Assembly (NCBI GenBank): GCA_963700665.1
Contig: CAVOYK010000001.1
Span: 542,958-606,957 of the forward strand
DNA: 64,000 nt
Direction: 5' to 3'
Source of the DNA: an uncultured Actinomycetes bacterium
GTDB taxonomy: Bacteria; Actinomycetota; Coriobacteriia; Anaerosomatales; PHET01
The first letter of the stretch is position 1, and each line of letters opens with the position of its first letter. This document shows, in pieces, positions 2,910 through 42,479 of the stretch. A model generated the notes under the pieces. The model saw only the letters and a program-made list of their open reading frames with translations. It had not been told where the DNA came from and made no database searches. The position numbers and the translations under genes were made by a program.

Positions 2910-3512
2910 TCAGTCTTCCGGCCAGCGGACGCTCGCCGGTAGGCCGTGAAGGTCGATCAAGCGGCCGGCAACGCACAGGTACGCCGCGTCGGCTCGATCG
3001 ACGAGGACCCGATTCGCCCGGCCCAGCGCGTCTCGGAACAGCCTGCCTGCCCAGTAGGCCGGCACGACGCCGTCGCCGACCTCATTGGTCACTACAATGG
3101 TGTCGCCCTCACGCTCGGTGATCCACTTCAACGCCGCGTGAAGTCTCCGCTCCACCGATTCTTCGAACCCACGGGGCATCTCCTCTTCGTCCCACAGCAC
3201 CGAACCTTCGGCGTCCGCATTGACCTCGTCCATCATGAGCCCCAAGAGCGTGCCCAGACAGTCGACGACCACGATGTCGGTCTCCGGCACATCGCGGACC
3301 CATCCCAACGAGTCGTGAGCCTCCACCGTCGTCCAACCCCTCGGCCGCTGAGCACGGTGTGTCGCGATTCGCTCCGCGAACTCGGCGTCAATGCCGGCTT
3401 GGCCGAACGCGACCACCGTGACGCCAGCGTCGGTCGGGCGAGACTCGACAAGCCTGACCGCTGCCGCGCTCTTTCCGCTGCGCGCACCGCCGGTGAACAC
3501 CACGAGGGCCAT
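2910..3512 (-). CDS. cobU: Bifunctional cobinamide kinase / cobinamide-phosphate guanylyltransferase
   Basis: TGGARSGKS P-loop, RIATHRAQRP..W, VDCL, VTNEVG.G and FRDALGRAN motifs. Confidence 0.95.
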   Translation of the reverse strand: MALVVFTGGARSGKSAAAVRLVESRPTDAGVTVVAFGQAGIDAEFAERIATHRAQRPRGWTTVEAHDSLGWVRDVPETDIVVVDCLGTLLGLMMDEVNADAEGSVLWDEEEMPRGFEESVERRLHAALKWITEREGDTIVVTNEVGDGVVPAYWAGRLFRDALGRANRVLVDRADAAYLCVAGRLIDLHGLPASVRWPED

Positions 3513-4313
3513 CTACTCCCCCATTCCAACAGCCATCCGAAGCGCGCCGATCTCGCTGGAGGAGAGCATGCGCCACGTTCCGGGACTCAACGCCCCCAAC
3601 TCGATGGGGCCAACTGCGGTCCTGTGCAGTTCTTCGACAGGATGGTGGACTGCCGAGAACATGCGACGGACCTGACGCTTTCTGCCCTCCGTGATGACGA
3701 TCTCCACGAGCGCGGTTCCCTCACGACGTTCGAGCACTCGAACGATCGCAGGGGCAGTGATGCCGTCGTCGAGCTCTACTCCGGTGGCCAGCCTCTTTCG
3801 TGCGATCTGTCCGGGATGACCTTGCACCACGGCCACGTAGGTCTTCGGGACCTTCCAGCGCGGGTGCAACAATCGGTGCGACAACTCCCCATCGGTCGTG
3901 AACAGCAGCAGGCCGGTTGTGTCGGCGTCGAGTCTCCCAACGGGGAACAACCCCGGAAACTCATCGCCCGGGACAAGATCGGCTACCGTTGGGCGTTGCT
4001 GAGGGTCACGCATGGTCGTGACGAATCCGGCGGGCTTGTTCAGAGCGAGGTAGACGGGGCCGGCGGACGCGTGGACCTCGCGTCCGTCCACCTCCACGAC
4101 GTCGACGCGCGGATCGACCTTGCTTCCCAGAGAAGTGACGACGGTTCCGTTGACGCTGACACGACCGGCGGTCATGAGGTCCTCACTACCCCGGCGCGAC
4201 GCGACGCCCGCGCGAGCAAGGAACTTCTGAAGGCGCATGACGACCACGCGTTCATCACCCGCCCCCGCGGCATCGGCCGCTTGAGAGCGGTTGCTGTCTG
4301 GCGCAGCGCACAT
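3513..4313 (-). CDS. rluB: rRNA pseudouridine synthase (RluB/RsuA family)
   Basis: S4 domain MRLQKFLARAGVASRR, NKPAG, catalytic GRLD, EGRKRQVRRM. True start may lie further downstream. Confidence 0.9.
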   Translation of the reverse strand: MCAAPDSNRSQAADAAGAGDERVVVMRLQKFLARAGVASRRGSEDLMTAGRVSVNGTVVTSLGSKVDPRVDVVEVDGREVHASAGPVYLALNKPAGFVTTMRDPQQRPTVADLVPGDEFPGLFPVGRLDADTTGLLLFTTDGELSHRLLHPRWKVPKTYVAVVQGHPGQIARKRLATGVELDDGITAPAIVRVLERREGTALVEIVITEGRKRQVRRMFSAVHHPVEELHRTAVGPIELGALSPGTWRMLSSSEIGALRMAVGMGE

Positions 4314-26782: not shown

Positions 26783-28837
26783 TTACGACTCCGCGTCGCC
26801 CTCAAGCCGCTCGATCTCCTCGCACAGAGACAGCCACTCGGACTCGAGCTCGGGTAGTCGCTGCTTGATCGCGTTGTACTCTCCCATGGCCGCTTCAAAA
26901 CGGCCTTTGTCGGAGTACAGGTCCGGCTGTGCCATCTGCGCGACCAGCTCATCGTGACGAGCCTGAGCGTGCGCAATCTCCTGCTCGAGAGGCTTCAGGC
27001 GCGTACGCGCGGCCTTCGTCGCCCGATAAGCGCTGTTTCGGGCCTCTGCCTCTGCCCGCTTCTGATCCTTGGTCTTCGGCCCTGCCGCGGAGGAGTCCGG
27101 CGGCTGCGGGGCAACCTGCGCCCCCTCCGGAGTATGCACTCGCCGAGGAGTCCGTCCCGTGCGCTCCGACGAGCTGGACCCGGCTCTCGGTCGAGCCACG
27201 TTCGCGCTTGGCTGCGGCTCAACGGCGCTGGCTTGCTCGCGCTTCCACAGGTAGTAGTCGTAGTCTCCGTCGTAGACGGTGATGCGCCCATCGATCACCT
27301 CTACGACCTTGGTGGCGATCGCACGGATGAGGTGCCGGTCGTGGGTGATCAGCGCGATGGTGCCCTCGAACCGCTTCAGCGCCTGCTCCAGCACGTCGCT
27401 CGACGCGATATCCAGGTGGTTGGTCGGCTCGTCGAGACACAGGAACGGAGCGGGCTTCACCAGCATCTTGGCGAGCGCAAGACGTCCCTTCTCCCCTCCC
27501 GACAAGACCCGCACCTGCTTGTCGACGTCGTCACCATGGAACAGAAACGCGCCTAGAAGCCCGCGCACCTCCCCTTGCGTCCACCCGGGTGCCACGCCGT
27601 CTATCTCGCGAAAGACGGTGTTGTCGAGTCCGAGCGCCTGCAGCTGGTGCTGGGCGAAGTACGCGGTCTCAACGTGTGCGCCCAAGCGCCTCGCCCCGGA
27701 CTCGAAAGGCAGCACACCTGCCAGCAGCTTGAGCAGTGTGGACTTCCCTGCCCCGTTGGGTCCCACCAAGGCGACCTTGTCGCCGCGATACAGCGAGAAG
27801 TCCAGCCCGTCGTAGACCACGAGGTCGCCGTAGGACTTGGAGACATCCTCAAGCGCGATCACCAAGTCGCCCGTCCTGGCCGGCTGGGGGAACTTGAATC
27901 TGACGGTCTTGCGCTCCTCGGGAACCTCGACCATCTCGGCCTTGATCTTCTCGATGCGCCTGATGCGATCTTGGGCCGCCTTGGCCTTGGTGTTCTTGTA
28001 GCGGAACCTGTCGACGAACGCCTGCATGTGCTGGATCTCCTTGAGCTGTGCGTCATGTTTGATGCGCAGTTGTTCCAGCGACAACTCGCGAGCCTTTTCG
28101 TACGCGGCGTAGTTGCCGGTGTACAGGGTCACGCGCCGCTGGTCTATCTCGGCAACGCGGTCGACGATGCCATCCATAAACGCCCGGTCGTGGCTCACGA
28201 TGACGATCGCGCCGTCGTAGGCGCGCAAGAAACCTTCGAGCCACGTCACGCTCTCGAGATCGAGATGGTTTGTGGGCTCGTCGAGCAGGAGCACATCGGG
28301 GCGCATGAGCAGGAGTTTCGCCAGCGCAAGCCTCATCTGCCAGCCACCGGAGAACTCGTCGGCGTCGCGCTCGAAGTCGGACTCCTTGAAGCCGAGACCG
28401 CCGAGAACGGCGCGCGCCTCTGCTTCGACCGTGTAACCGCCCATCGTCTCGAAGCGCTCACGGATGCGACCGTACTCTGCGAGCAGTGGAGCGTGGTCGA
28501 GCTCGTCGGCCTCAGCGATCTGCTCCTCCAGCAGGTGCAGGCGGTGCTGCATGGAGGTCACGTGCTCGGCGGCGGTCAGCGCCTCGGCCAGCACGCTTCG
28601 ACCACCCATCTCGATCGCTTCTTGTTCCAGGTAGCCGACGACCGCATCCTTGGCGAACGACACCGTGCCTTCGTCCGGGTACTGGCGCTGAGCGACGATC
28701 TCGAGCAGCGTCGTCTTGCCCGAACCATTGGGTCCGACAAGCGCCAGCCTATCGCGCGCGCCGACACGCAGCGACACGCCCTCGAACAGGACGCGGTCGC
28801 CGAAGGTCTTTGTCACGTTGTCCAGGGAGAGGATCAC
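26783..28837 (-). CDS. ABC-F family ribosome-associated ATPase
   Basis: Two NBDs ([21 protein letters not shown] and [21 protein letters not shown]), no TM segments, Uup-like coiled-coil tail. Confidence 0.95.
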
Positions 28838-28907
28838 AGCGGTTCAGCATAGCACCGAGACGGGCATCTTCTTCACCGAAGATACCCTGCGACGCGAGGG
28901 GACACGA

Positions 28908-30260
28908 ATGGGCACAAAGGGCACGGTGGTCGTGATCGGTGCCGGCGCGAGTGGCAACGCGTGCGCTCGCTATCTCGCCCGACGTGACTGGCGCGTAGTC
29001 CAAGTCGAGCGAGACCGGTGGGGCGGAACGTGCTTGTGGCGAGGCTGCATCCCCAAGAAGGCCCTCTACCATTGCGCCGAGGTAGCTCGCGGTGCGAGGG
29101 ATGCTGACCGGTTCGGCGTCGTCATCAAGGACGCGTCGATAGACTGGCAGTCGGTGCTGGCGTGGAAGTGGCACTGCCAGGAGACCTATGCCGGCGACCA
29201 GGAGGGGCTGGCTAGGGGCTTCGGGATCGAAGTAGTCCATGGCGAAGCCCGCCTCGTCTCTCCCGACGCTGTGGCCGTGGGTGACCAGGTCTTCTCGGCA
29301 GATCACATCGTGATCGCGACCGGCTCAGAGCCCGTGATGCCGCCCATCACCGGAGTGGAGCTGGCCGATACGTCCGAGGACGCCTTGCGCTACACGGAGA
29401 TACCAGAGTCCCTCGCAATCGTGGGTGGCGGCTTCATCGCGATGGAGATGGCGGGGATATACGCTTCGTTCGGCACCCGTGTCACCGTTGTGACGAAGCC
29501 AGACACCGTACTCGAGATGCTCGATCCCGAGCTTGCAGAGACGGCAGTGCGCTGCCTTGGCGAGCTTGGCGTCCGCTTCCTGACCGGCTGCACCGTGCAG
29601 GCGATCGAGGGCGCACCGGGATCGCTCGCAGTACGCGGATCGGACGCCTCGCATGCCGACGTGACCGTGGAAGCCGCTCGGGTGATTCTGGCCGTGGGGC
29701 GTACGCCGTGCATCTGCGGTATCGAGGCGGAGGCAGGCGGCGTGGGCACTGATGCCCACGGACGCGTCGTGGTCGACGAGTACCTCAGGACCACCAACCC
29801 ACAGGTCTGGGCGGTCGGCGACGCCGCCGGTGGGATGATGCAGACCCCTGTTGCGAATCTCGAAGGTCGGACGGTGGGACAGTCCATCGACGAGGGCGTC
29901 CCGTTGCACGCGGACTGCTCGGCGATGCCCATCACCTGCTTCACGGTGCCTCAGCTGGCGAGCGTCGGGCACACCGAAGCGTCCGCTCGGGAGGCCGGGC
30001 TCGATCCCAAGGTGGTCCGAATCAGCCTCGACGGCGTCGGTGCTCCGATCATCGAAGGCGCCACCGACGGCTTCCTCAAGCTGGTGATCGACGCACCTTC
30101 GGACAAGGTGGTCGGCGCTCAAGTGGCCAGCTGCACCGCGAGCGACATCATCTACGCGGTGACCGTCGGCATGCGCACCGGTCTGACCGCCGAGCAGCTC
30201 GGCAAGGCGGTCGCGGTACATCCCTCGCACGCCGAGATGCTGTACTACGCGGGGGGCTAG
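28908..30260 (+). CDS. Class I pyridine nucleotide-disulfide oxidoreductase (Lpd/glutathione reductase-like)
   Basis: GAGASG, GGTCLWRGCIPKK redox disulfide, GGGFIAME, WAVGD; C-terminal HPSHAE. Confidence 0.9.
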   Translation: MGTKGTVVVIGAGASGNACARYLARRDWRVVQVERDRWGGTCLWRGCIPKKALYHCAEVARGARDADRFGVVIKDASIDWQSVLAWKWHCQETYAGDQEGLARGFGIEVVHGEARLVSPDAVAVGDQVFSADHIVIATGSEPVMPPITGVELADTSEDALRYTEIPESLAIVGGGFIAMEMAGIYASFGTRVTVVTKPDTVLEMLDPELAETAVRCLGELGVRFLTGCTVQAIEGAPGSLAVRGSDASHADVTVEAARVILAVGRTPCICGIEAEAGGVGTDAHGRVVVDEYLRTTNPQVWAVGDAAGGMMQTPVANLEGRTVGQSIDEGVPLHADCSAMPITCFTVPQLASVGHTEASAREAGLDPKVVRISLDGVGAPIIEGATDGFLKLVIDAPSDKVVGAQVASCTASDIIYAVTVGMRTGLTAEQLGKAVAVHPSHAEMLYYAGG

Positions 30261-30320
30261 ACACTCGGCCCTCCACGCCGGGACGGTCCGGCCGCGGAAG
30301 CAAGACGCACCCCCGTTCCA

Positions 30321-30785
30321 TCAGCGGTCGCTCGTGTCCGCCTCATCAGAGGCCATGAGACGCAGCTTGTAGGCGAACAGGCAGCGCTTCGTGAGTACGT
30401 AGGCCCCTGTCTCGCCTGTCTCGAGCGAGAGGGCCTTGCAGATCTCGGGCTTCTCGTCGGGGTGAAGCGAACAGAGTCGATCCTCCTGCAACGCACTGCA
30501 CGGCATGGACACGTGAAGGTGGTTCGCCGAGAACTCGCAGCATCCCACCGGCACCGCTACTTCGTCAGCGCCCACCCGAGCCCCGTGCAGTTCGTAGTAG
30601 CGCTTCGAGTCCTCAGACAGTCGGACGTGGATGCGCACCTCGTGCTCGTCCCGGTCCACCCAACTCTGAGGGTTGAGGCGGAAGTTGAAGCCCCCGCAAC
30701 ACTCGGCCTCGCAGTACTCGAGCCAGCAGATGCAATCGTCGCACGATCGCGCCGCTTCGAGCAGCGCTCGTTCGTCAGGCTTCAT
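30321..30785 (-). CDS. Cys-rich protein, YkgJ/CxxCxxCC-like
   Basis: C..C....C...CC N-terminus and PC..L....C..H...KP..C C-terminus. Confidence 0.7.
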   Translation of the reverse strand: MKPDERALLEAARSCDDCICWLEYCEAECCGGFNFRLNPQSWVDRDEHEVRIHVRLSEDSKRYYELHGARVGADEVAVPVGCCEFSANHLHVSMPCSALQEDRLCSLHPDEKPEICKALSLETGETGAYVLTKRCLFAYKLRLMASDEADTSDR

Positions 30786-30911
30786 GTAGCTTCCTCGTCG
30801 AACGGAACGTGGTGATGCCTCCAGCAATCAACCACAACGATGCGCGAAAGACCCCGCAGATGTGTCAGAGCCCAAGCCTGTTGTGATGCAGGCAGACGCG
30901 TAGGCGGTCCC

Positions 30912-30950
30912 AACGAAAAGGACTCGCGCAATGCACGAGTCCCTTTCGTT
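30912..30950 (-). terminator. Intrinsic terminator after the micro-cytochrome gene
   Basis: Inverted repeat AACGAAAAGGACTCGCG-CAATG-CACGAGTCCCTTTCGTT, with a U-run on the minus strand. Confidence 0.75.
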
Positions 30951-30964
30951 CACCACGTGCGCCG

Positions 30965-31174
30965 CTAGTGGCAACCCACGCAGGCGCTGAATCCCGGATC
31001 CATGTGGCACCGCGCGCAAACGCTGTGGACGTTCGCCTTCATCGCCGCGGGTGCTTTGTGCAGACCCGGTGGGGCTGCGCCATTCCCTTTTGCAGCGCTA
31101 GCGATCGTCGGCAGGATTAGCAGCGCGACCATGAGGATCAGTACTAGAAGTACCAACAGTGCTCTGCGCCTCAT
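30965..31174 (-). CDS. Very small secreted diheme c-type cytochrome (69 aa)
   Basis: Sec signal (MRRR + hydrophobic core + ASA), CARCH and C-terminal CVGCH, SD GGAGGAGG, own terminator. Confidence 0.8.
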   Translation of the reverse strand: MRRRALLVLLVLILMVALLILPTIASAAKGNGAAPPGLHKAPAAMKANVHSVCARCHMDPGFSACVGCH

Positions 31175-31407
31175 ACCAGCCTCCTCCCTCGAACCGAACA
31201 GTACCCCTATGTCATACCCTCATTACTCGTGAATCTGTCGGCCAAGAGCAGTCGTCGGCAAGGCCCCGTCTGTGCGTTGTCAGGCTCGCGATTCCCTCGT
31301 CCGCTTGTTGCCATTCATATGCTCACAACGAGACAGTGTTCCGCGATATCGTTGAGGAGTACTGTAGACTGCCGCCACAGAACGAACCAACGGAGACTGG
31401 ACGTTGT

Positions 31408-31848
31408 ATGCAACAGCTGATCCGGTCATGCGAAGTTCGGGTCCCGCGGGAACCACTCTGGGATTTCCTATCGGACTACAACAACGTCGTGGCCATGGGG
31501 TCCCCCGACGCGTCCGCGCGACTTGCTAGGGGGGATTCACAGCGATGTGACTGCGCCTACGAAGCCGAGATCACCTGGCAGGGGTCAACAAGTCACTTCA
31601 CCGCCTACATGATCGATGCCACTCGGCCGGAGACTCTGACGTGGGATGCCGAAACTGGCATGGGGAGAAGCTGGCTTCGACTGGACTTGGAGTCGGTCAG
31701 CTCGGAAGTCACGTTGGTCACAGTAACGCTGCGCTTCGAAGGCAGTCCTTGGGCGCAGATGCTCGAGGCCTTGGCCTGGGGCTTCCTGAGCGAAACGTTT
31801 GATCGGACGCTCGTCGAGTTGTCGCAGCTGGGTCCGAGCGACACCTGA
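31408..31848 (+). CDS. SRPBCC/START-like ligand-binding protein
   Basis: V..PREPLWDFLSD N-terminus, P..LTW and TLVTVTL strands, C-terminal helix. Confidence 0.7.
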   Translation: MQQLIRSCEVRVPREPLWDFLSDYNNVVAMGSPDASARLARGDSQRCDCAYEAEITWQGSTSHFTAYMIDATRPETLTWDAETGMGRSWLRLDLESVSSEVTLVTVTLRFEGSPWAQMLEALAWGFLSETFDRTLVELSQLGPSDT

Positions 31849-31911
31849 GCTCCCCGGCGTTCTCACACGGTCGGCGAGTGACCGCACTCCTCCCTTGAAC
31901 CGCCTGGCCCC

Positions 31912-32094
31912 TCATGACTCCGGCGGTTCATCTTGGACAAGATCCTCCGACGGTTCGCCCACCTCGTTCTCTTTGGCATGAGGCTCCTGATGGCGCGCTC
32001 GGCGTTCAGCGAGTCGGCGTTCCTCGCGAGCGCTCAGCTTCTTCGGACGCCAAGCGGAGCCGTCCGGATTTGTGGAACCGTCGGTCGTCTTCAT
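31912..32094 (-). CDS. Small charged hypothetical protein
   Basis: AAGGAG SD before ATG; 60 aa, low complexity. Confidence 0.45.
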   Translation of the reverse strand: MKTTDGSTNPDGSAWRPKKLSAREERRLAERRARHQEPHAKENEVGEPSEDLVQDEPPES

Positions 32095-32261
32095 GCTCTC
32101 AACTCCTTGGCCAGCTCAGAGCGGGAAGCTCCGCGAGGCGCGTGGAAGGTACCAGTCACGGATCTCGACCGCCGCGAGCGCACACGAGCGCCACGGGGAC
32201 ACACCATCCTTGTACCCATGCACCGCAGGGCCATCGAGCAGCGAAGTCATCATGATGTGAG

Positions 32262-32330
32262 GAAAGGCCCCGGCGACGTCGCCGAGGCCTCGTCCGTTGC
32301 TGGTGGGCCATCGTGGACGCACTTCGAACT
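32262..32330. repeat. att-like junction 1 (hairpin + TGGTGGGC core + integrase tail)
   Basis: Near-identical to 34011-34079; core shared with the tRNA-Val 3' end; plus strand reads WWAIVDALRT. Confidence 0.8.
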
Positions 32331-32371
32331 GCGGCAGAGAATCGGAAGAGGGAATGCGTGAGACAGGGATG

Positions 32372-32460
32372 GCCAGGCTTCCAATCAGCCAGTTCATAGC
32401 ATCGCCAGCAAGACGAGTGGCCCCGCGCTTGACAGCTGATGTCTTCCGCACAGGGGCGCG
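32372..32460 (-). pseudogene. Decayed 3' fragment paralogous to the 33578-33946 gene
   Basis: AGDAMNWLIG vs LGDAMNWLIEA; tgtcttccgcacagg vs tgtcttctgcacagg. Confidence 0.6.
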
Positions 32461-32491
32461 ACTTCGGTCACCGGAGACGAGGTGGACCGCT

Positions 32492-33247
32492 TCATGCCTG
32501 CCTGGGTCCCACCCTGGTGATCTTCATGGACCCTGCAGCGTCATCCAGAACGAACTGACCTGCTACTTCACGGAAGTACTCATCGGCCGCCTTTCTGCAG
32601 CCACCCCAATCATGGTAGTCGTCAAGAATGATGCTGCCGCCCACGACGAGATTCGGGAAGACCCGCTTGAGGCATGTCATCACGGGTTCGTACCAGTCGA
32701 CATCAACGTGCGCGAATGCCACTGGTTGGTCGATGATCATCGTGTCTTGGACCAACCCCTTCACCAGCGCGACAGATTGCTCTTCACAATCTATCCCGAA
32801 GTCCTTCAGGTTCGACTGAACGACGCCGTACAAGTTCTCCTGATAGCCGTAGTAGGTGTCCCCACCGATGCCGGTTGATTTTCCTTCCACGATCGTCCTG
32901 TATCGATCATGCACATCCTGCGTATCGTCGGCTGAGGGTGGAGGGATCATCTCAAACACGTCATAGACGAAGAACGGACGCTCGGAGTCCTTGACAGACG
33001 CAATCAGAATCGCAGAACCGCCAAGTGCGCAACCTGCCTCGAGGAAGATCCCGGCCAGGTTGGCCTCCTCGATCATGCGACACGTGCTCGAAAGGCTGAC
33101 AAGCTTGCTGACTGACAAGTACGTCAGCTTCCTCGATCGGATGCGGGATATCAGTTCACGGTCTCCCGCATTCGGTTTGCTTGGGATGCCTGCACCACGC
33201 CTCCGACCAGCAATCCTCACGATGTATCTTCTCAGCCGCTGAAGCAT
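32492..33247 (-). CDS. TylF/MycF/NovP-family O-methyltransferase
   Basis: GIFLEAGCALGGS, YDVFE, LVKGLVQDT, HVDVDWYE and GGSIILDDY..W.GC..A. Visibly lower GC than the flanks. Confidence 0.88.
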   Translation of the reverse strand: MLQRLRRYIVRIAGRRRGAGIPSKPNAGDRELISRIRSRKLTYLSVSKLVSLSSTCRMIEEANLAGIFLEAGCALGGSAILIASVKDSERPFFVYDVFEMIPPPSADDTQDVHDRYRTIVEGKSTGIGGDTYYGYQENLYGVVQSNLKDFGIDCEEQSVALVKGLVQDTMIIDQPVAFAHVDVDWYEPVMTCLKRVFPNLVVGGSIILDDYHDWGGCRKAADEYFREVAGQFVLDDAAGSMKITRVGPRQA

Positions 33248-33420
33248 GATTCTTCCTTTGAAGACTAACGTGGTGCGCATGAGCTGGAATGCGTGCACCT
33301 CTCGTCTACAGTCTACCTTCCGGCCGATCCGTGCTGAGGCGTCATCGCCGGACTGTCGATCGAGCTTGGGGACTGATGGCCGCCGACAAGACCTGCTCGG
33401 ACTCTAGCAGGCAGTGCGAC

Positions 33421-33557
33421 GTCGGAGATCACGGCACGGTCGCCTACCAGTGGAGAGGCCCCACAGGCTCCTGGAATTGGAGCCCTCTGGGACCTTGAAG
33501 CATTCATGGTGGGCCATCGTGGACGGGCTTCGAACCGCGGTGGGGAGCGACAAGTGA
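33421..33557 (+). pseudogene. Integrase C-terminal tip containing att-like junction 2 (core 33507-33514)
   Basis: YQWRGP..LLELEPSGTLKHSWWAIVDGLRTAVG aligns with YQWKDPFGLLDMEPSGAFRYEWWAIL at 38704-38781. Confidence 0.7.
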
Positions 33558-33577
33558 GCAAGCGTGAGGCCGCGTGG

Positions 33578-33946
33578 CTAGGCTTCGATAAGCCAGTTCA
33601 TCGCATCGCCCAATGAAACGAATGCCACCACCTCAAGGCCCCTGTCTTCTGCACAGGCAGCGAAGAAGTCCGCGTGGTCAAGCCGATCTCGCGGCACCAC
33701 AAGGGCAGTCTTTCCAGCGAACGACTTCCGAACCTTGTGCAACCCCGACGCAAGGTCTACAAGATCCGTCACCGTCATCTCCGAGTGGGCGCTCCGTGTA
33801 TCGACAAGCACGTCGTAGTGTTTCGAAGGTGGCGACGCCGAAGCAATCGCTGCAAGAAGCCGCCTGCTCTCCTCCAGATCGAGCCGCCCGTCTTGGGTCG
33901 ATCTCAGGAACTCATGCGCGTAGATGACCCTGATGTCAGATGGCAT
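33578..33946 (-). CDS. STAS/SEC14 (SpoIIAA-like) small protein
   Basis: VLVDTR, KTALVVP and RGLEVVAF..LGDAMNWL pattern; 122 aa. Confidence 0.65.
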   Translation of the reverse strand: MPSDIRVIYAHEFLRSTQDGRLDLEESRRLLAAIASASPPSKHYDVLVDTRSAHSEMTVTDLVDLASGLHKVRKSFAGKTALVVPRDRLDHADFFAACAEDRGLEVVAFVSLGDAMNWLIEA

Positions 33947-34010
33947 GCTGGCCGTTCTCTCATCGGTAGGCGCACGAACATGGATCCTCTTTCCCCTCAA
34001 CAGGGTACGC

Positions 34011-34079
34011 GAAAGGCCCCGGCGATGTCGCCGAGGCCTCGTCAGTTGCTGGTGGGCCATCGTGGATGGCTTTGTAACC
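34011..34079. repeat. att-like junction 3 (hairpin + TGGTGGGC core + integrase tail)
   Basis: GAAAGGCCCCGGCGATGTCGCCGAGGCCTCGTCAGTTGCTGGTGGGCCATCGTGGA, nearly identical to junction 1. Confidence 0.8.
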
Positions 34080-34090
34080 GCCGCGCTGGT

Positions 34091-34176
34091 GTCCTAACGT
34101 TGCGGTGCATCAGCAGGAGCCGACACGCCTCCTTGAGTCTAGCGGCAAGGCTCTCCGCTGGATGCGCTGGTTCGGC
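34091..34176 (-). mobile_element. Integron attC-like site (solitary)
   Basis: Minus strand GCCGAAC-CAGC-GCATCCAGCGGAGAGCC ... GGCTCCTGCTGATGC-ACCGCAAC-GTTAGGA: R boxes, L boxes with one extra unpaired C, just after a stop codon. Confidence 0.7.
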
Positions 34177-34181
34177 ACGCC

Positions 34182-34300
34182 TCACTCGTGGTGGCTCCAC
34201 ATTCTGAGCATCCCTGACGATCTGCTCGTCCTGCGAGACCTGACAGACGAGTCGGCGCTGGATGTTGATGCGTCGGGAGTCGGCGCCCGCGAGGTCGCCG
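34182..34300 (-). pseudogene. Txe/YoeB toxin C-terminal remnant
   Basis: GDLAGADSRRINIQRRLVCQV...(frameshift)MLRMWSHHE-stop matches the YoeB tail pattern SRRINIQHRLVY...LRMWTHYE. Confidence 0.75.
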
Positions 34301-34376
34301 ACTCCCGATGTACAGTGCCGCGACACCGCCCGCCCTCAGCGCTATTGCGCCATCTCGAGTGCGTGCCTCCATCTGA

Positions 34377-35159
34377 CTACGCCACGCTCTCAGCACTGGA
34401 GGCCACCGCAGACCGATTCAACTCGGTGATGATCGCGGCGCCGGGCAGGCTGACCTTGCTCCCGGCACTGGAAGTCAGAGCCGTCCGGTCGAAGCCCTTG
34501 GCGAGGAGCCAGATGGCCAGCGCCATCTCCTGGAGACCGATCGGGATGTTGAGCACCGTGTTCACCGTCGTGAAGCCGAACTCCTGCGTGAAGCCTGCGT
34601 ATGACGGTCGAGACCATGAACAACACGATCGCGACGAGCCCCCAGCCCGATAGCCAACGGGGAACAAGCCGAGACCTGTAGAGCACAAGCGTAGTACATG
34701 AATGCTCCAATGCCGAACGGGATCAGCGCAACGAACCCATGCACCCACTCGCGTACCGCGAGCACCAGGTTCGATAGCCGTCACCGCCGAGGCCAAGCCG
34801 GCGGAGCCTACAGCCGCGGCCTCCTGGCCTACGGTCAGCAGCGCAAGCAGGCCGAGGGCCCCGACCACGACGAACACAGTCCTCGACCAACCTGCCGGCG
34901 ACAGATCCGAGGGCCAGAGCCGGGTTGGACTTCTTGAAGACCGGATACAGACCGATGGCGATGCCCGCGCCGGTCAATGGCCCACACGAACTCGATGAGT
35001 GCGGTCAACACCACCTGGGTGTTGTTCGTCGCCAACCTGGCGAGATCGACCGGGGCGACCAGCGGACCACCCAGCGGGACGATGCTCAGGATCGACGTGG
35101 CCGAGCACAGGATGAACAGGACTCCTACCGCGATCGCGTTGTCCTCTGTACGTGCGCAT
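34377..35159 (-). CDS. DUF4386 family membrane protein (frameshifted)
   Basis: AIAVGVLFIL, GIAIGLYPVFKK.NPALALG, LYRSRLVPRWLSGWGL and EMALAIWLLAKGF. Confidence 0.8.
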
Positions 35160-35160
35160 C

Positions 35161-35445
35161 TCAATCTCCTTCTTCTGTGGGTTGTGGCGCCGGGTCGGCT
35201 TCAAGGCGATTGACCGAGACGAGCGTTATGCCCAGGTCACGCACCTTCGTCAGGAGTCCGTGCAGCACGGCCTGGTCGACGACGGCGCCGGTCAGGAGCG
35301 TGTCGCCGTTGTCTTCCAGCGCGATCGACAGGTCTTCGAACCAGCTCGTCGTCGCGCGTCCGAGATGGCCTTCGACCCTGATCTGGTAGACCGCAGGCCA
35401 ATCTGGGTCTGTCCTTGGGTTTCGCCGCTCTGCCACTGTCCTCAT
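35161..35445 (-). CDS. Small conserved hypothetical protein (possibly ACT-like)
   Basis: YQIRVEGHL...WFEDL...TLLTGAVVDQAVLHGLL.KVRDLG..LVSV, a pattern recalled from genes next to MalT-like regulators. Confidence 0.75.
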   Translation of the reverse strand: MRTVAERRNPRTDPDWPAVYQIRVEGHLGRATTSWFEDLSIALEDNGDTLLTGAVVDQAVLHGLLTKVRDLGITLVSVNRLEADPAPQPTEEGD

Positions 35446-35534
35446 CGCCCTTTGCCACCGGTTGAGGCGTCTAGGTGCGCGCTACTGGAAGAGCATGGGC
35501 GCGCGCGCAGCAGCACTGACATCGGTCGAAGGGA

Positions 35535-38304
35535 CTAACTGGGGGGACTGCCAGATCTCAGGAGCAACGGGCAGGATGCCCAGTTCCCGTGCGCGCTGGC
35601 GACCGCCTGCGTGCGGCTGTGGGCATCCAGCTTGTCGTAGATGCTGCGCGCGTGGGCCTTGACCGTGAACAGCGAGAGATAGAGCCGGTCGGCGATCTCC
35701 CGGTTCGTGAGTCCGGCGGCGATCAGCTGGAGCACCTCGGTCTCACGATCGCTCAGAAGTTCCTTGCCTTCACTTCGGGCTCCGGGAAGTTGATCGCCGT
35801 CGGGCCCGGTCGACGGGAAGGCCGCCAACAACCGCCTCGCGCTAGTCCGGCGCAATTCGCGCGGGAAGCGGCTGTCGTCGAGAAGGCGGGCCATCGGTGG
35901 GCCCTCACTCACGAACACCCGGACGTAGCCCTCCGGTTCGGCCAGGGATAGGGCGCGCTCCAGCGGCGCGAGGGCCGCGGATGTGTCGCCCTGCGCCTGG
36001 TGAGCGAGCGCCTGCAACACCAGGATCTCGATCGCGCTCCCGATCCTGCCGCCCTCTTCCGCCGCCTGCAGGAGGCGCTCCAGCAGTCCTAGGGCGTCGT
36101 GGACGGCCGCCGCCGCCCCCTCCCGCTCGCCCTGGGCGATGAGCACTCTCGCGAGCGTGACGTGTTCGAACTCGTGCAGGTAGCTGAGATCGTCGTCGAC
36201 GGACAGGCCTCGTTCGCGCGCCCACTCCAGTGCTTCGGCCACCCTGCCCTGCGCGAGCCCAGATCCGTGCCTTCAGGGCGCGAATGGGGCGCACGTCCGG
36301 CAAGGGCGTCCTGATGAACAGGCGCTCAGCCTCGTCAAGCAGGCCGAGAGCGCCGTGCAGATCGCCCTCTGCCTCGAGAAGTCGAGCCTGCGCGACATGC
36401 CAGCGCCAACGCCACACCGGCATCTCGCCTTGCTCGCCGAGTTCCTTGCTTCTCAGCAGGTGTTCCGCGGCAGCAGCCAGGTCCCCCTGTTCGAGGGCCA
36501 GCTCTCCCAGTCCCCGATACAGTTCGGCTGTTTCCGGTGGCAGGGGCTCGCCCTGGTCCACCACGACCTGCAACAATCGTGTCAGTGCGTCGACAGCTCC
36601 GCGCAGACGACCCAGCGCCGGCCTGATGTCGGGCAGGACGGACATGGCGCTGATCGCGATCAAGGATGTTGCCAGCGACGAGCTGTCTCTGGCTGTAGTC
36701 GACAAACAACCCGGTCGGTTGCTTCCAGGTCGCCGCTGGCCCAGTACGTCATCGCCATGAGCGCGATCGCCTGCTGCGCGCCTGAGGTGGTCTCCTTCCG
36801 GCAGGAGCTCGAGTACCCGCTGAGCGTGCTTCACGGTGCCGGGCACATCACCCATAGAATGGGCGCGGTAGGCACGGGCCACGCCGATGGTCGCCAGCAG
36901 AGACCGAAGCTCTTCTTCGTCCGCGAGCGACCGGCGGCTGGCCCTGCCCGGGCTCCAGCCAGCGCTCGGCGTCCGTCAGCCGGGCCTCGGCGGCATCCAA
37001 TTCGCCGCGTACCCAACATCGCGTAGGCATACCAAACGCTGAGCACGGGCCGAGCGCGGATCAACTCGTCCGGCAGCGACCTCGCCCACTTGAGCCACGA
37101 TGGCGGTGTGCGAACTCTGTCACCACTGACGGCCCCGCCAGCTCGATCAGGTCAGCCGCCCACTCGAAGTCCTTGGCGCAGCAGGGCGTGACGGATCGCG
37201 TCGGATCGCGAACCGTTCTCCTCGTACCACTCGGCTCGCCCGTCGGTGCAGAGTCGGCAGCTGATCGGGTTGCTCCTCGAGCAGGTGCGCCTGCAGGACA
37301 TCGGCGAAGAGGTGGTGATAGCGATACCACCGTCGGTCGTCGTCAAGCGGGACGACGAACAGGTTGTCGCGCTCCAGGCGCTCGAGCATCGCTTTGCCAC
37401 GCTTCTGGCCGGTGACGGCATCGCACAGAGCACCGCACAACGTGTCGAGGATGGAGGTCTGCAGCAAGAAGCTGCGCGTGCGCTGTGGTTGGCGGTGAAG
37501 AACCTCCTCGACCAGGTAGTCGAGCACGAAGCGGTGGCTGCCGGTGAAGGCTTGGATGAAGCTGGTGGCATCCGGCCGCGCTTGGATGGAGAGCGCCGCC
37601 AACTGCAGGCCGGCGATCCAGCCCTCGGTACGGATCTCCAAGCGCGGTGATGTCGTCTGTCGAGAGGTCGAGGCCCATCACCCGGTTGAGGAACTCGGCG
37701 GCTTCGGAGGGCGCGAAACGCAGATCGGCCGCGCGCAGCTCGGTCAGTTGGCCCCGAGCCCGCCACCGGGCCAGGGGAAGACGTGGGTCCTCCCGGGTGG
37801 CGATGACCGACGTGCAACTGCGGCGGCAGATGCTCCAGCAGGAACGCGAGCAGCCTCGTCCACCGGTTCGGAGTCGACGACATGGTAGTCGTCGAGGACG
37901 AGGACGACACTCGTGCGGGAGAGCCGCGATCTCGTTGAGCAGAGCCGTCAGCATCGATTCGGTTGGTGGCGGCTGAGGAGACTGGAGCATGCCCAGCACT
38001 CCTTGCCCGACATCCGTCGCAACCGTCCGCAGCGCGGCGACGAGGTAGGCCAGGAAGCGCGCCGGATCGCTGTCGCGTTCGTCCAGGGAAAGCCAGACAG
38101 GTCGAACCTCCGGTTCGAGACGACTGCAGCCGGCCGCCCACTCGCTGACGATCGTGGTCTTGCCGAAGCCAGCCGGGGCAGATACCAGGATCAGCCTGCT
38201 CTGCAAACCCTCGTCCAGCCGTTCTGATCAGGCGGGGGCGAAGAACCACGTTGGGCCGAGAGCGGCGGGACGTAGAGCTTGGTGGCGAGAATCGACGTCG
38301 ACAT
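35535..38304 (-). CDS. MalT-like LuxR-family ATP-dependent regulator (multiple indels)
   Basis: ILATKLYVPP, SAPAGFGKTT, LDDYH, TEGWIAGLQLAA, DYLVEEVL, YRYHHLFAD; C-terminal LuxR HTH LSDRETEVL..GLTNREIA. Confidence 0.9.
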
Positions 38305-38529
38305 GAGGCAATCATAGGACACAACCCCGAGAAGCGAATGGGCGCGGACCGTCGTCTCCGTTGAGGCGTCGGGTTCCTCCGCTACGTCCCCTGCATCGCC
38401 CACTGCTCGGCAGGTCTGCCGAGCAGCACATATGCGGTCCGCATAGGAAGATACGCGCTGGACACAAGCTCAACAATGAGCCGTGTCACAGCCGTCTCAT
38501 AGCATCTAGGCGAACCATATCCCCAGGGA

Positions 38530-38796
38530 TTGCGAGGAGCTGTGCTCGAGAACATGCAGCGTGCCAATGCTCGCTGGCGCGCTATGCGCTCGTGGCGTCC
38601 AGCGCTCGATGTCCGATTCCAGGATGCCCCTGAAGAGAACAAGCGAGAGGTCGTGCAGACCATACTCACTAACCTGGGTGTCCAGGAGGGCCGTATAGCC
38701 TCCTACCAGTGGAAAGACCCCTTCGGACTCCTTGACATGGAGCCCTCCGGGGCCTTCAGGTACGAATGGTGGGCGATACTGGATTTGAACCAGTGA
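38530..38796 (+). pseudogene. C-terminal remnant of a tRNA-targeting integrase (probably a large serine recombinase) reading into the tRNA antisense
   Basis: ENKREVVQTILTNL...YQWKDPFGLL...WWAILDLNQ-stop; homologous tip at 33421-33557; no catalytic domain present. Confidence 0.6.
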
Positions 38797-38841
38797 CTTC
38801 CACCGTGTGAAGGTGGCACTCTCCCGCTGAGTTAATCGCCC
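38767..38841 (-). tRNA. tRNA-Val(CAC)
   Basis: GGGCGATTAACTCAGCGGGAGAGTGCCACCTTCACACGGTGGAAGTCACTGGTTCAAATCCAGTATCGCCCACCA: cloverleaf, anticodon CAC, encoded CCA. Confidence 0.97.
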
Positions 38842-38874
38842 GTGTGTGCCGCAGCTCGGCGGCGAGGAATCAGT

Positions 38875-39854
38875 CTAGCGATACCCGTTCGGGTGGGCAA
38901 GGTGCCAACGCCATGCGTCGCCGACGATCGTGCCGAGCTCCGGGTACTCGCGTCTCCATCCCAGCTCGCGCTCGGCCTTCGCCGCAGATGCCACCAGTGT
39001 GGCTGGATCGCCGGGCCGTCTCGGACCTATCGCCACTTCCACGTCCCGTCCGGTCACGTGGGCGCACGTCCGCACCACTTGGAGGTTGCTGTAGCCGGTT
39101 CCGTTGCCGAGATTGAAGACACCGCCACGCGAGCCGCTCACGAGCTGCTCCAGTGCAAGCACGTGTGCCCGCGCGAGATCCACAACGTGGATGTAGTCAC
39201 GCACACACGTCCCATCGCGCGTCGGGTAGTCGCCACCGAAGACCTCGAACCGCTCCTGGCCCTCGCGCATCGCCCACAGGATACGCGGAATGAGGTGGGT
39301 CTCGGGCTCGTGCGCCTCCCCCACCGAGCCGTCGCGCCATGCTCCAGCGACGTTGAAGTACCGCAGAGTCGTGGCTCGCAGTCCTTGCCCGCGAAGCCTG
39401 TCGATCGATTGCTCGAAGCGCAGCTTGCTCTCGCCGTACGCGTTGACCGGACATCGTCGGAGAGTCCTCGAAGATGGGAACCGTCTCAGGCTCGCCATAC
39501 ACCGCCGCGGTCGACGAGAACACAAGGGCCTGCACCCCTTGCGCCATCATCACTTCGAGAAGCGTGACGCGGGGCCAGAGAGTTGTTGCGGAAGTACTTC
39601 TCGGGATCTGACTGCGACTCAGAGACCTCGATGTAGCCCGCCATGTGAACGACGCCATCGCAGCCACCTATCGCCTCCTCGACCGCGTCGGGGTCTCCCA
39701 CCGACCCCACCACGAGGCTGCAACGAGGATCGATCGACTCGCGCCACCCACGCTCCAGGGTGTCGAGGATCACGCACTCGTGGCCAGCCGCCAGTAGGGT
39801 CCGCGCCGTGATCGATCCGATGTAGCCGGCACCACCCGTGACAAGTACCCGCAT
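38875..39854 (-). CDS. galE: UDP-glucose 4-epimerase (frameshifted)
   Basis: [35 protein letters not shown] and [16 protein letters not shown]. Confidence 0.93.
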
Positions 39855-39878
39855 TCGTTTCCCTCCAGTGCCCAGCCG

Positions 39879-40968
39879 CTAGGTCGCGAGTCGGAACGAT
39901 TCCGCCCTGCAGTGCCTCGCACCACACGCTCAGACACCCGGGTGTCCCATCGTTCGGGTACCTCCCAGTCAGTGCCGCCGGCCAGTGCAGCACCAACGGC
40001 CTCCAGAATCTCGGGTGCAGAGGCCTCAACGAGCCGATTCGAACCCAGCTCGACGGTGATCTGCCGTTCGGTGTTGCGCCGAATGGTGACGCACGGCGTG
40101 TGAAGCATGCACGCTTCCTCCTGCATTCCACCTGAGTCCGTGACGACGACCGCCGCATCCCGCTGCAGCGCAAGCATGTCGAGGTAGCCCACGGGGTCGA
40201 CCACGTGGACACCCGACTCCGGGCCGCGCAGACCAGCGCCCTCGAGCAGCGGGCGCGTTCGTGGATGGGCCGGCAGTAGCACCGGCATCTCGACGTCGTT
40301 GAGGGCGGCCGCGATGGCGCCCAGCGCGCTCCGGGTGATCGGTGTTCTCCGGACGATGACACGTCACAAGCGCGTACGACCGCTCCTCGAGACCGAGGCG
40401 ACCGGCGGTGTCACGGCCAGCGATCCGCTCAACGTTTCGCAGCACCGACTCGGCCATGATGTTGCCCACGAAGTGGATGCGCTCCGCGCCGACCGCCTCG
40501 CGACGCAGGTTCTCCTCGGCCGAGGCCACGGGGGTCAGCAGCATCGCGGAGAGCTGGTCGGTCACCAGCCGATTCACTTCTTCGGGCATGGACATGTCGC
40601 CGCTGCGCAACCCGGCCTCCAGATGAACCACCGGGATGCCGAGCTTCACCGCAGCGAGCGCCCCGGCAAGCGTCGAGTTCACGTCGCCGACCACCAGCAA
40701 GCGCATCGGGCTTCTCGGCGGCCAGCAGCTCTTCGAGCGCGATCATCGCCTTGCCGGTCTGCACCGCGTGCGTACCCGAACCAACGCCGAGAAACCACCT
40801 GGGCTCGGGCAGATCGAGGTCGCTGAAGAAGACGTCCGACATCGACGCGTCGTAGTGCTGCCCGGTGTGCGCAATCCCCGCATCGATCCCCGCTGCGGCG
40901 AGCGCCGGCATGAGCGGGCCGACCTTGATGAAGTTGGGGCGCGCCCCGACGACGACGATGACTCTCAC
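39879..40968 (-). CDS. wecB: UDP-N-acetylglucosamine 2-epimerase (frameshifted; 3' end approximate)
   Basis: VGARPNFIK, HTGQHYD, GDVNSTLA, HLEAGLRS..MPEE.NR, HRPENTD and TDSGG.QEE. Confidence 0.92.
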
Positions 40969-42479
40969 GTGCGGCCTCCAGCCACTGTCAGTAGGCACCT
41001 CGCGCGAACAGCACCGCGGGTATGGTTCTGAACATCAGCGTGATATCGAGTGCCGACCGACCAGTTCTCGATGTAGAACAGGTCGAGCGCCACCATCTCG
41101 TCGAAGGTGAGGCTGCTGCGACCGGAGACCTGCCACAGGCCGGTCATGCCCGGCACCACCTCGAGCCGCCGCCAGTCCTTGACCGAGTATGACTCGACCT
41201 CGTACGGCAGCGGCGGTCGAGGTCCCACAAGCGACATCTCGCCCTTCAGCACGTTGATCAGCTGAGGAAACTCGTCGAGCGAGAACTTGCGCAGCCACTT
41301 GCCGACGGACGTCACGCGGGGGTCGTCCTTCATCTTGAAGAGAGGTCCGGAGGCCTCGTTCGCCGAGACAAGATCGGCCAGGCGCTGCGTCGGCGTCGAC
41401 GTACATCGACCTGAACTTGAGCATCTGGAACGGCCGCCCGTCACGACCGGCTCGAGTCTGACCGTAGAAGATCGGGTCCCGAGCTCGTGAACTTGATCAT
41501 CAGCGCGATCGCGAGCCAGATCGGCATGCCAAGAGACAACGATCAGTCCCGCCACAACGAGGTCGAAGACTCGCTTGACGAGCAGATTGCCCTTCGAAAG
41601 CGAGATGCCCTTGACGGTGATGAGAGGTACGCCGGCGACCTCGTTGACCAAGACCCGGCTCGTCAGGACCTCGAACAGCCCAGAGGAGATGTGCACGTCG
41701 ACGTCGACCGCGCGCAGCTCGGCGATGATGCGAGCGAGCACGTCGTGATCGAACGCAGTCGACGCGATGATCACGCAGTCCGCACCGGTCGCCGCCACGA
41801 TGTCGGCGACGTCTCGCGCCGTCCCCAGCACCGGTATCTCGCCCGAGCAGAAGTCGAGCCCGAGCCGCTCGGCCTGTGAGGAGGCCAAACAGCCGACGGG
41901 AACGAGTCCCGCCTCGGGGTTCTGTCGCAGCACCCTGATGATGTCGCCCGACTCGGCGTTGCTTCCCACGACCAGGGTGTTTCGCATCAGCCGGCCCCGC
42001 CGACGGACGAGCGCGATCACCACCGCGAGAATCCCACGGGCAGTGAGGACCATGACGATCGAGAGCATCCATGCCAGCAGGGTCCACCCACGCGAGAGGC
42101 CGGGGAGCTTTGCGAGGAACGTCGCCAGGATCAGCGCCACGACCCCCATCGACAGCGCACGCGCTACTCGGCCCGTCTCTGACAGGCCCCACGTCACACG
42201 ATCGAGGTCGTAGAGACCGGTCAGGGCAAGAAACGCGACCCACAGTGGCACGACTATCAGGGCCAGCTGCCAGAAGCTGATGTGGAGCTCGGTGGTTTCG
42301 AGGTTGACCGGGGCGGTGAAGGATCCGAACCACAGCCATGTCGCCACAAGGCCAGCGCACAGGATCGCCACCGCGTCGATAGCGACAAGGGCGGCCACCG
42401 TGAGCCTGCGGCGCCGCGTCCGTGACATCGTCCGCGCGCCCGTCTGCGTGTCCCGCACACCACTTGTCGGGTTCGGCAT
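40965..42479 (-). CDS. Priming polyprenyl-phosphate sugar transferase (WcaJ/CpsE-like)
   Basis: N-terminal TM helices, KRVFD, KFRSM (alternate frame), DDPRVT.VG..LRK.SLDE.PQL.NVL.G.MSLVGPRP and PGMTGLWQVSGR. Confidence 0.93.
   Translation of the reverse strand: MPNPTSGVRDTQTGARTMSRTRRRRLTVAALVAIDAVAILCAGLVATWLWFGSFTAPVNLETTELHISFWQLALIVVPLWVAFLALTGLYDLDRVTWGLSETGRVARALSMGVVALILATFLAKLPGLSRGWTLLAWMLSIVMVLTARGILAVVIALVRRRGRLMRNTLVVGSNAESGDIIRVLRQNPEAGLVPVGCLASSQAERLGLDFCSGEIPVLGTARDVADIVAATGADCVIIASTAFDHDVLARIIAELRAVDVDVHISSGLFEVLTSRVLVNEVAGVPLITVKGISLSKGNLLVKRVFDLVVAGLIVVSWHADLARDRADDQVHELGTRSSTVRLEPVVTGGRSRCSSSGRCTSTPTQRLADLVSANEASGPLFKMKDDPRVTSVGKWLRKFSLDEFPQLINVLKGEMSLVGPRPPLPYEVESYSVKDWRRLEVVPGMTGLWQVSGRSSLTFDEMVALDLFYIENWSVGTRYHADVQNHTRGAVRARCLLTVAGGRT

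Follow-up and report, generated by a model that had tools for sequence, protein, structure and literature searches.

The DNA analysed here is a stretch of 64,000 nt, called the window in the following, on contig CAVOYK010000001.1 of assembly GCA_963700665.1, which stems from an uncultured Actinomycetes bacterium (Coriobacteriia; Anaerosomatales; PHET01). The source genome (label G000) comprises 2.45 Mb on 13 contigs and is 77% complete. Within the window, a short core sequence recurs at the junctions of a row of small gene-carrying units that ends at a tRNA-Val(CAC) gene. Four such junctions (sites A to D) and the sequences that form them are listed below; P' is the right arm of the unit sites.

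32262-32332, plus strand: site A, with hairpin arm (stem 32266-32289), spacer, core (32301-32308) and P' arm (32309-32332)
33441-33538, plus strand: site B, with a decayed recombinase tail as left arm (33441-33506, one base shorter than the copy at site D), core (33507-33514) and P' arm (33515-33538)
34011-34081, plus strand: site C, with hairpin arm (stem 34015-34038), core (34050-34057) and P' arm (34058-34081); fold z-score -4.4
38503-38796, plus strand: stub of a large serine recombinase (LSR) gene, its last ~75-95 codons, running into the tRNA in antisense; 38705-38766 is the long-form left arm of site D
38767-38841, minus strand: tRNA-Val(CAC), found by ARAGORN, with an Rfam tRNA score of 67.1 bits and a cloverleaf with valine anticodon

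The 8-base core TGGTGGGC occurs nine times in the window, where 2.46 copies are expected, and none of 100 shuffles reached nine. Four of the nine copies sit at 32301, 33507, 34050 and 38767. At the first three of these the core continues exactly into CATCGTGGA. The combined 17-mer TGGTGGGCCATCGTGGA, with up to three mismatches allowed, has four matches against 0.30 expected (0 of 100 shuffles reached four); the fourth match, with three mismatches, is the end of tRNA-Val itself at 38767. The original prediction had named these four positions and the common continuation of the first three, and both were borne out. Core D (38767-38774) is the last 8 bases of tRNA-Val(CAC), and the body of the tRNA takes the place of the right arm (B'). 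Translated, the sites read WWAIVDALRT (32301), WWAIVDGLRT (33507), WWAIVDGFVT (34050) and WWAILDLNQ (38767).

Two kinds of left flank, a hairpin and an integrase-like tail, had been described, and both were found again. The hairpin flanks (32262-32300 and 34011-34049) are GC-rich stem-loops and are 95-96% alike, whereas the 65-nt tail flanks (33459-33523 and 38719-38783) are 72% alike. The tail motif YQW begins at 33445 and at 38704; of these two copies, the first reads LLELEPSG only after a frame shift of one base. Measured from core to core, the units are 1206, 543 and 4717 bp long, as predicted (1.2, 0.54 and 4.7 kb). Their proposed cargo is clear for the TylF-like methyltransferase and the MalT-like regulator, and weak for the STAS-like protein:

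32333-32410, minus strand: 3'-end remnant of a STAS-like gene (GDAMNWLI); the sequence to the right of site B is homologous to it
32492-33298, minus strand: cargo of unit 1, TylF-like O-methyltransferase (PF05711, E 1.1e-19)
33578-33949, minus strand: cargo of unit 2, SpoIIAA/STAS-like protein, weak match (PF11964, E 0.0054, under Pfam's cut-off)
34377-38324, minus strand: cargo of unit 3, whole module of three open reading frames (ORFs)
34377-35164, minus strand: DUF4386-like membrane protein, weak match, in several frames in the assembly
35161-35445, minus strand: 94-aa ORF
35535-38324, minus strand: MalT-like LuxR-family regulator with clear MalT-TPR and GerE matches, in several frames in the assembly

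The remnant in unit 1 is part of a longer likeness between the beginnings of units 1 and 2, as 32301-32406 and 33507-33610 match at 76-91%. The GC content of unit 1 is 57.8%. Gene calling in the units by GC content at third codon positions proved unreliable because the GC content of the cargo is lower; it missed both the TylF gene and the STAS-like gene. A plasmid collection compared with the whole region gave a single unrelated match of 76%, to part of the MalT gene.

The frame breaks in the MalT and membrane protein genes were considered as a sign of decay, and this was rejected. The host genes galE and wecB (window 38860-41000) are each broken over several frames as well, and comparison with three relatives revealed six single-base extras in them, at about 39450, 39568, 39891, 39920, 40326 and 40700. 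Judged from these alignments, the extras suggest insertion errors of the assembly, which would also depress the completeness score. Since galE and wecB carry them, the frame breaks in unit 3 are probably assembly errors too.

Left of site A lies a further stretch with the following features:

30261-32261, no strand: variable stretch between a conserved lpdA-like host gene (which ends at 30260) and site A
30321-30827, minus strand: Cys-rich ORF
31159-31848, plus strand: SRPBCC gene
31912-32094, minus strand: 60-aa ORF

Two genomes of the same genus (G003 and G004) conserve 28700-30260 only, and 30261-32261 is not conserved there. Parts of the window at this end (31409-31854 and the hairpin at 32255-32309) match one 700-bp unit of another genome (G010) that is bounded by two cores. 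The GC content of the stretch is 61.8%, against 65.1% for the window, and no core was found in 30261-32261 with up to six mismatches. Thus the four predicted junctions stand, whereas the array probably does not begin at 32262 but extends farther left, to about 30.3 kb by the sequence comparison, with 30261-32261 probably representing older units whose sites have decayed.

Two other identities of the repeated right arm were tried and rejected. An Rfam search of 31000-40000 (E <= 1), made with CATCGTGGA in mind as part of a second tRNA or a known RNA, gave tRNA-Val and one noise match. As to a second tRNA at the junctions, ARAGORN finds one tRNA in the window, and by reading the right arm forms no T-arm.

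In the whole source genome, the 17-mer with up to two mismatches is found at the three window positions and at one unrelated place on contig 11. This copy (270553-270572; L004 about 1498-1520) has one mismatch and no CCA triplet, is 1.4 kb away from tRNA-Ser(CGA) and is close to an apparent second, partial tRNA 3' end (L004 about 1800-1841); it may mark another island with a different integrase. Two oddities of the ARAGORN search of this genome are a tRNA-like gene with a four-base anticodon (catg) on contig 11 (378093-378187) and a tRNA-His of 89 nt on contig 13 (26583-26671).

The recombinase family and its site

The stub frame 38503-38796 was searched with phmmer against 1.84 billion proteins (E <= 1e-3). 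There were 78 matches, 60 of them shorter than 200 aa and matching at their C-termini; very long matches with many matched stretches were left out of examination. Two matches are full-length proteins: P0019 (494 aa, E 2.9e-11, matching with residues 419-493) and P0035 (488 aa, E 5.2e-9). Both consist of Resolvase, Recombinase and Zn_ribbon_recom domains (PF00239, PF07508 and PF13408), and both end in ...SYQ(Y/W)K.PF.VLE...GA....WWAI.DLNL. Three more (P0033, P0032 and P0067) are partial proteins of the same LSR kind. Because these relatives of ~490 aa with LSR domains share its C-terminal peptide, the integrase-like tip is, by its sequence, that of an LSR and not of a tyrosine integrase. The original prediction was right that the tail matches recombinase C-termini and that a search with the tail peptide could lead to the full-length parent; the parent is, however, of the serine type.

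No integrase is present in the window. As had been stated from the sequence, a complete one is missing, and profile searches for PF00239, PF07508 and PF00589 agree. The source genome as a whole yielded no match to PF00239 or PF07508, and its five matches to PF00589 all lie outside the window range (C1:542958-606957). A tblastn search for a full-length parent of the tail in the same genome returned only the two window copies. Since only the last ~75-95 residues of the LSR remain, the window encodes no recombinase.

Among 146 genomes of the order, near-full-length LSRs that are 49-76% identical to P0019 were found at 20 places in 18 genomes, two of them with one internal stop; about 14 fragments exist besides. 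In 12 of 14 fetched LSR loci the end of the gene overlaps a tRNA-Val (CAC, TAC or GAC). Of the remaining two, one (L040, G123:C59), a full-length member of the family, ends in tRNA-Ile(GAT) and not in tRNA-Val, and one is without a tRNA that could be found. Owing to the overlap, the tRNA supplies the last codons of the integrated LSR gene. Phage and plasmid LSRs in the searched collections share only about 30% identity with the family, and the matches mostly end near residue 340; the C-terminal part is also covered by only one of 509 phage records. The parents are weakly similar to the structures of the A118/LI and TP901-1 integrases.

For the anatomy of the site, 18 loci (the window and 17 from relatives) with 56 non-tRNA sites and 14 tRNA sites were aligned on the core. 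Every junction has three parts: on the left a hairpin or the longer LSR tail, then the 8-bp core, then the 24-bp right arm P'. In the P' profile, information content is high between +8 and +31 and drops to background past +32, and the consensus is CAT(C/A)GTGGA(T/C)G..CTT(C/T)G(A/T)AAC(C/G)G. The tRNA arm B' reads GAT...GGATTTGAACC. While +8 to +16 are in register, the motif TTYGAAC is displaced: its first base is at +22 in P' (56 arms) but at +17 in the tRNA (14 arms). The window conforms to this, with TTCGAAC of its P' arms 5 bp farther from the core than TTTGAAC in the tRNA.

In LSR attachment sites, the zinc-ribbon-domain (ZD) motif of attB lies 5 bp nearer to the centre than that of attP (Rutherford et al., PMC3783163). 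The offset between P' and the tRNA arm, compared for the right half-site only, equals this ZD shift as given there. Counting back in the manner of the same study, we infer that the centre of the site would lie near +6, within the core. The crossover would then fall within the 8 bp of the core.

The compact left arm is a 24-nt stem-loop about 10-12 nt left of the core, and the longer version encodes the last residues of the LSR. A predicted fold of -15 kcal/mol or lower was found at 42 of 70 sites, whereas control positions of these loci had one in only 41 of 270 cases. Read on the tRNA strand, the hairpin is followed by UUUC or UUCC and looks, by its predicted fold, like an intrinsic terminator; the tail on that strand folds as a two-tier version of the hairpin stem. 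Tail and hairpin arms can be aligned as the long and the short form of a single sequence (alignment A1), and a site from a metagenome (L085) is intermediate between them. Since the hairpin is the short form of the tail arm and travels with units in many genomes, the hairpin junctions at 32262 and 34011 are, on sequence grounds, most likely attP-like, as is the junction at 33507. The prediction of attachment-type sites thus held, whereas its assignment of the hairpin junctions to attR-like host flanks most likely did not.

Three observations on site-like sequences stand beside these results. The first 9 bases of P' are those of a real tRNA acceptor and T-stem, as if P' were a tRNA end with 5 bases inserted; this resemblance is seen because matches to the 17-mer include tRNA 3' ends of other organisms (e. 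g. L072 and L092). In the source genome, tRNA-Val(TAC) on contig 3 (148580-148689) is followed by the stem-loop GGCCCCGGCGACGTCGCCGGGGCC, which is almost the same as the units' hairpin arm; this locus has no array. In G003, the distal site (L026, minus strand, 14325) reads TGGTGGGC GATAC TGGATGG, that is, like tRNA-Val(CAC) up to +12 and like P' thereafter, while its counterpart in G004, 95% identical, has CATCG at these positions. This could reflect a different crossover point or ordinary variation of the site. As a clue to a crossover right of +12 the variant was considered weak, for +8 (G/C) and +11 (A/C) vary among P' arms anyway.

Arrays and driver elements in related genomes

With at most one mismatch, the 17-mer is found at 81 places in 34 of the 146 genomes of the order and in 21 of 76 genera; a reversed control gave two matches. 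The places cluster in arrays. Of 17 fetched loci, 11 end at tRNA-Val, and the others are cut by contig ends or are without tRNA-Val. Arrays occur at tRNA-Val genes of all three anticodons (CAC, TAC and GAC). Among the 52 units measured, lengths run from 69 to 8837 bp (median about 1.4 kb), and 32 units do not exceed 1.7 kb. Units down to 342-700 bp retain complete sites at both ends, and site pairs only 69 and 141 bp apart (L054 7979/8048; L055 13991/14132) are effectively empty units.

Twenty ORFs of small units were compared with Pfam. Five had a match at E <= 1e-3, three of them above the cut-off (enolase, PocR/PAS and SRPBCC) and two weak; 15 had none, and some of these may not be genes.

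The content of the arrays is not fixed, and the boundaries of units in relatives coincide with the cores, both of which are consequences of the original prediction. At the syntenic galE locus, G003 has seven or eight units, G004 has one with a recognisable site and G001 has none. The host flanks of G003 and G004 are 90.6-92.6% identical, yet the two genomes have only one unit-sized stretch in common at this locus. The Val-CAC locus of G003 and the Val-GAC locus of G004 share an enolase unit with 95.4% identity over 1655 nt; the homology starts at the first base of the core and stops about 25 nt past the next core. A further genome (G076) has an extra hairpin-type unit exactly between two sites where G077 has just one. 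To the left of this G077 site, identity is 86% to the first G076 site and 24% to the second. In G030, a 342-bp unit at Val-TAC recurs at the Val-CAC locus of the same genome with a 1.7-kb insert.

The cargo of the 1.6-kb enolase unit is a complete gene for a normally housekeeping enzyme (L050 6038-7309; L026 12928-14200). The G004 copy is intact, whereas that of G003 is broken into two frames. A homologue of the methyltransferase-like unit 6 of G003 (85%) lies in G004 next to the lpdA-like gene (L027, oriented 3092-3953), where cores cannot be recognised on either side. Its sites may have been lost by decay in G004, or else a gene already resident acquired flanking sites in G003.

The intact LSR gene sits in a small element adjoining the tRNA, of 4927 bp in G014 and 6754 bp in G030. 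The corresponding element of G010 has 4375 bp and an LSR with three stops. Both intact elements encode a protein of ~350 aa immediately upstream of the LSR, with 36% identity between the two (L055 16354-17385; L056 10809-11867). Its match to Rep_trans is weak (E 0.005, below Pfam's cut-off), and to judge by this similarity it may be a rolling-circle replication initiator. As cargo, one of these driver elements carries an ion channel and the other a BglII-type restriction-modification pair. G030, at 97% completeness, combines a single intact LSR at Val-GAC with LSR-free arrays at Val-TAC and Val-CAC, which is the arrangement that action in trans requires.

A scan of metagenomes with the 17-mer gave at least 120 matches in at least 119 stretches. 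Sorted by regular expressions, the matches listed comprise 69 chance occurrences that lack site features, 17 tRNA genes belonging to other organisms and 34 apparent true sites. The true-looking sites among them carry hairpin arms in 24 cases and tails in about five. Sequencing runs were compared with the region as contigs, not as raw reads, and the best run contained only 0.14 of its words; joints with sides under 30 were disregarded. A 237-nt contig of one run (X3) matches 33508-33665 with three differences, while its first 79 letters are unlike the window; the break at core B is a hint only.

Movement in trans, decay or homologous exchange

The region is a tandem array of small units without recombinase, and we consider it reasonably probable that these accreted at the 3' end of tRNA-Val(CAC) by way of this LSR family. 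With similar confidence, we think that the units entered as small recombinase-free circles through an LSR acting in trans. Each unit would arrive as a circle with hairpin, core and P' and recombine with a site at the tRNA-Val locus; the tRNA would be restored after insertion, with the unit supplying a terminator. The recombinase would come from driver elements of 4.4-6.8 kb that contain LSR, Rep-like gene and cargo, and in the source genome the driver would have been either lost or left unbinned. The methyltransferase, STAS-like and regulator units of the window may now be fixed.

Several observations weigh against this interpretation. No LSR was found in the array-bearing genomes G000, G003 and G004, which are 77%, 60% and 82% complete. 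In family f12 the site is present in five of five genomes and the LSR in none of them, and because of this many arrays could be fossils. These genomes and those of f12 are metagenome-type assemblies, in which small circles may have escaped binning. Identity between shared units is mostly 75-85%, indicating that most of the exchange is old. As to circles, no contig with a terminal repeat is among the metagenome matches listed, and four runs compared with the region as contigs gave scattered short pieces and no circular junction or empty site. In the profile as we read it, the left half-site has no clear symmetry with the right half-site. Finally, canonical LSRs recombine attP with attB only (PMC3783163). 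Re-insertion at a site whose left arm derives from a unit, or between two P' arms as G076 and G077 would imply, lies outside the standard model as given there and would need looser rules.

A more far-reaching possibility, which we advance tentatively and hold to be less probable than accretion as such, is a true gene-cassette system run by an LSR. Single-gene units would carry a site of ~70 bp that serves both as a tRNA-end mimic and as a transcription terminator, and drivers with LSR and Rep would act in trans to capture units serially at any tRNA-Val. The partner sites would differ in their right half only, and for this reason each insertion would regenerate a usable target and arrays would grow as in integrons. 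Both the chemistry and the logic of the sites would then be unrelated to those of integrons.

Alternatively, the units could once have been complete LSR elements of ~5 kb at tRNA-Val that were then eroded by deletions, leaving fixed fossils that are at best comparable to cis-mobilizable elements (CIMEs) and were never mobile as small cassettes. We regard this as rather unlikely. In its favour, two of the four window junctions (sites B and D) carry remnants of the LSR tail, C-terminal LSR fragments are common (the fragments beside the near-full copies, and the short proteins among the phmmer matches), and arrays often occur in genomes without an LSR that could be found. Decay followed by accretion is moreover the route described for CIMEs (PMC5704250), and decay has been proposed for the 15 ssrA islands without integration module (PMC3146451). 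Random deletion would, however, not recreate the compact hairpin arm, which is found at most junctions (A, C and most units of relatives) with a stem that recurs across unrelated units and genomes. Nor does erosion fit with the complete sites at both ends of units of 342-700 bp, or with the excess of hairpin arms over tails among the metagenome matches listed. In the ORFs of hairpin-type units that were listed or scanned, no LSR or Rep-like gene stood out, although no systematic search was made.

It is improbable that the ~70-bp repeat is a mere patch of homology, at which RecA-type exchange or slippage shuffles units between tRNA-Val loci without any recombinase. Such exchange would likewise place the breakpoints at the repeats and would account for arrays that persist where no LSR was found. 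Yet the exact identity between sites often spans only 17-25 bp, which is short for efficient exchange, and neither the origin of unrelated cargo between the sites nor the LSR-type 5-bp offset between P' and the tRNA arm would be explained. A chance repeat or an artefact of the assembly, which does contain many single-base errors, is hardly conceivable given motif counts far above those of shuffles and an architecture that recurs in independent genomes and metagenome contigs.

If units move as proposed here, a serine recombinase and a tRNA end would provide a second, integron-independent route to a chromosomal array of gene cassettes. There would also be a natural LSR site pair that differs in one half-site only, which bears on how directionality arises in enzymes widely used for genome engineering. 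Should the units be fossils, the locus would still represent a clean case of LSR accretion at a tRNA, with a recombinase gene end that overlaps its own site and a terminator supplied to the tRNA. The results also locate a gene-turnover hotspot in an order of Actinomycetota that is uncultured and has so far been represented by metagenome-assembled genomes.

Comparison with known systems

The likeness to integrons is one of function only: a row of mostly one-gene units, a hairpin-containing site for each and a fixed chromosomal place, which here is the end of a tRNA. There is no IntI tyrosine recombinase and no attI/Pc platform, and the remnant is of the serine type. Instead of the imperfect palindrome of attC, the site has a conserved linear core, a P' arm and a perfect GC-rich stem-loop of the terminator type.

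Tandem units of the staphylococcal cassette chromosome (SCC) exist, some of them without ccr genes. SCC differs in its host phylum, its rlmH/orfX target, its pair of recombinases and the much larger size of its units, and to our knowledge neither a terminator hairpin in the site nor a tRNA target is a feature of SCC. The large serine recombinases of SCC/SCCmec (CcrAB) insert at the 3' end of a conserved gene, as described in PMC3146451.

Among the systems described so far, the ssrA islands of Dehalococcoides are one of the nearest (PMC3146451). They have a serine recombinase, are inserted where the gene for a small structured RNA has its 3' end, and form tandem rows in which short direct repeats of the target mark the boundaries. 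According to the same source, 15 of these islands lack the integration module and have been proposed to be cis-mobilizable. The islands described there are large and have an integration module of six genes that includes a second, small serine recombinase. In contrast, the units here are mostly 0.3-3 kb with one or few genes, the drivers have 4.4-6.8 kb, the target is tRNA-Val and the recombinase gene runs into the target.

CIMEs arise by accretion, as with ICESt1 and ICESt3: the attachment sites are kept, the genes for integration and transfer are lost, and the elements lie in tandem at the same target (PMC5704250). The three window units resemble them in being bounded by sites and without recombinase. 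The cases covered in that source differ in that they have tyrosine integrases and are decayed integrative and conjugative or integrative and mobilizable elements. The targets of serine recombinases lie mostly within genes according to the legend of its Figure 1, whereas here insertion is at the 3' end of a tRNA, which would be restored in the process.

The tycheposons of Prochlorococcus are found in tRNA-adjacent islands with full or partial tRNA repeats and degenerate integrases, in which successive integrations push older elements inward, and 27 of 937 elements carry a large serine recombinase (10.1101/2020.12.28.424599). They are mostly elements with tyrosine recombinase and replication modules; arrays of single-gene units without recombinase are not described in the sections of that report that were consulted.

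A literature search gave no account of an LSR cassette array at tRNA-Val, within a limited library and set of terms that did not extend to supplementary files. From the systems above, the present array differs in its small single-gene units, its compact terminator-containing site, its tRNA-Val target and a recombinase gene that ends inside its own site.

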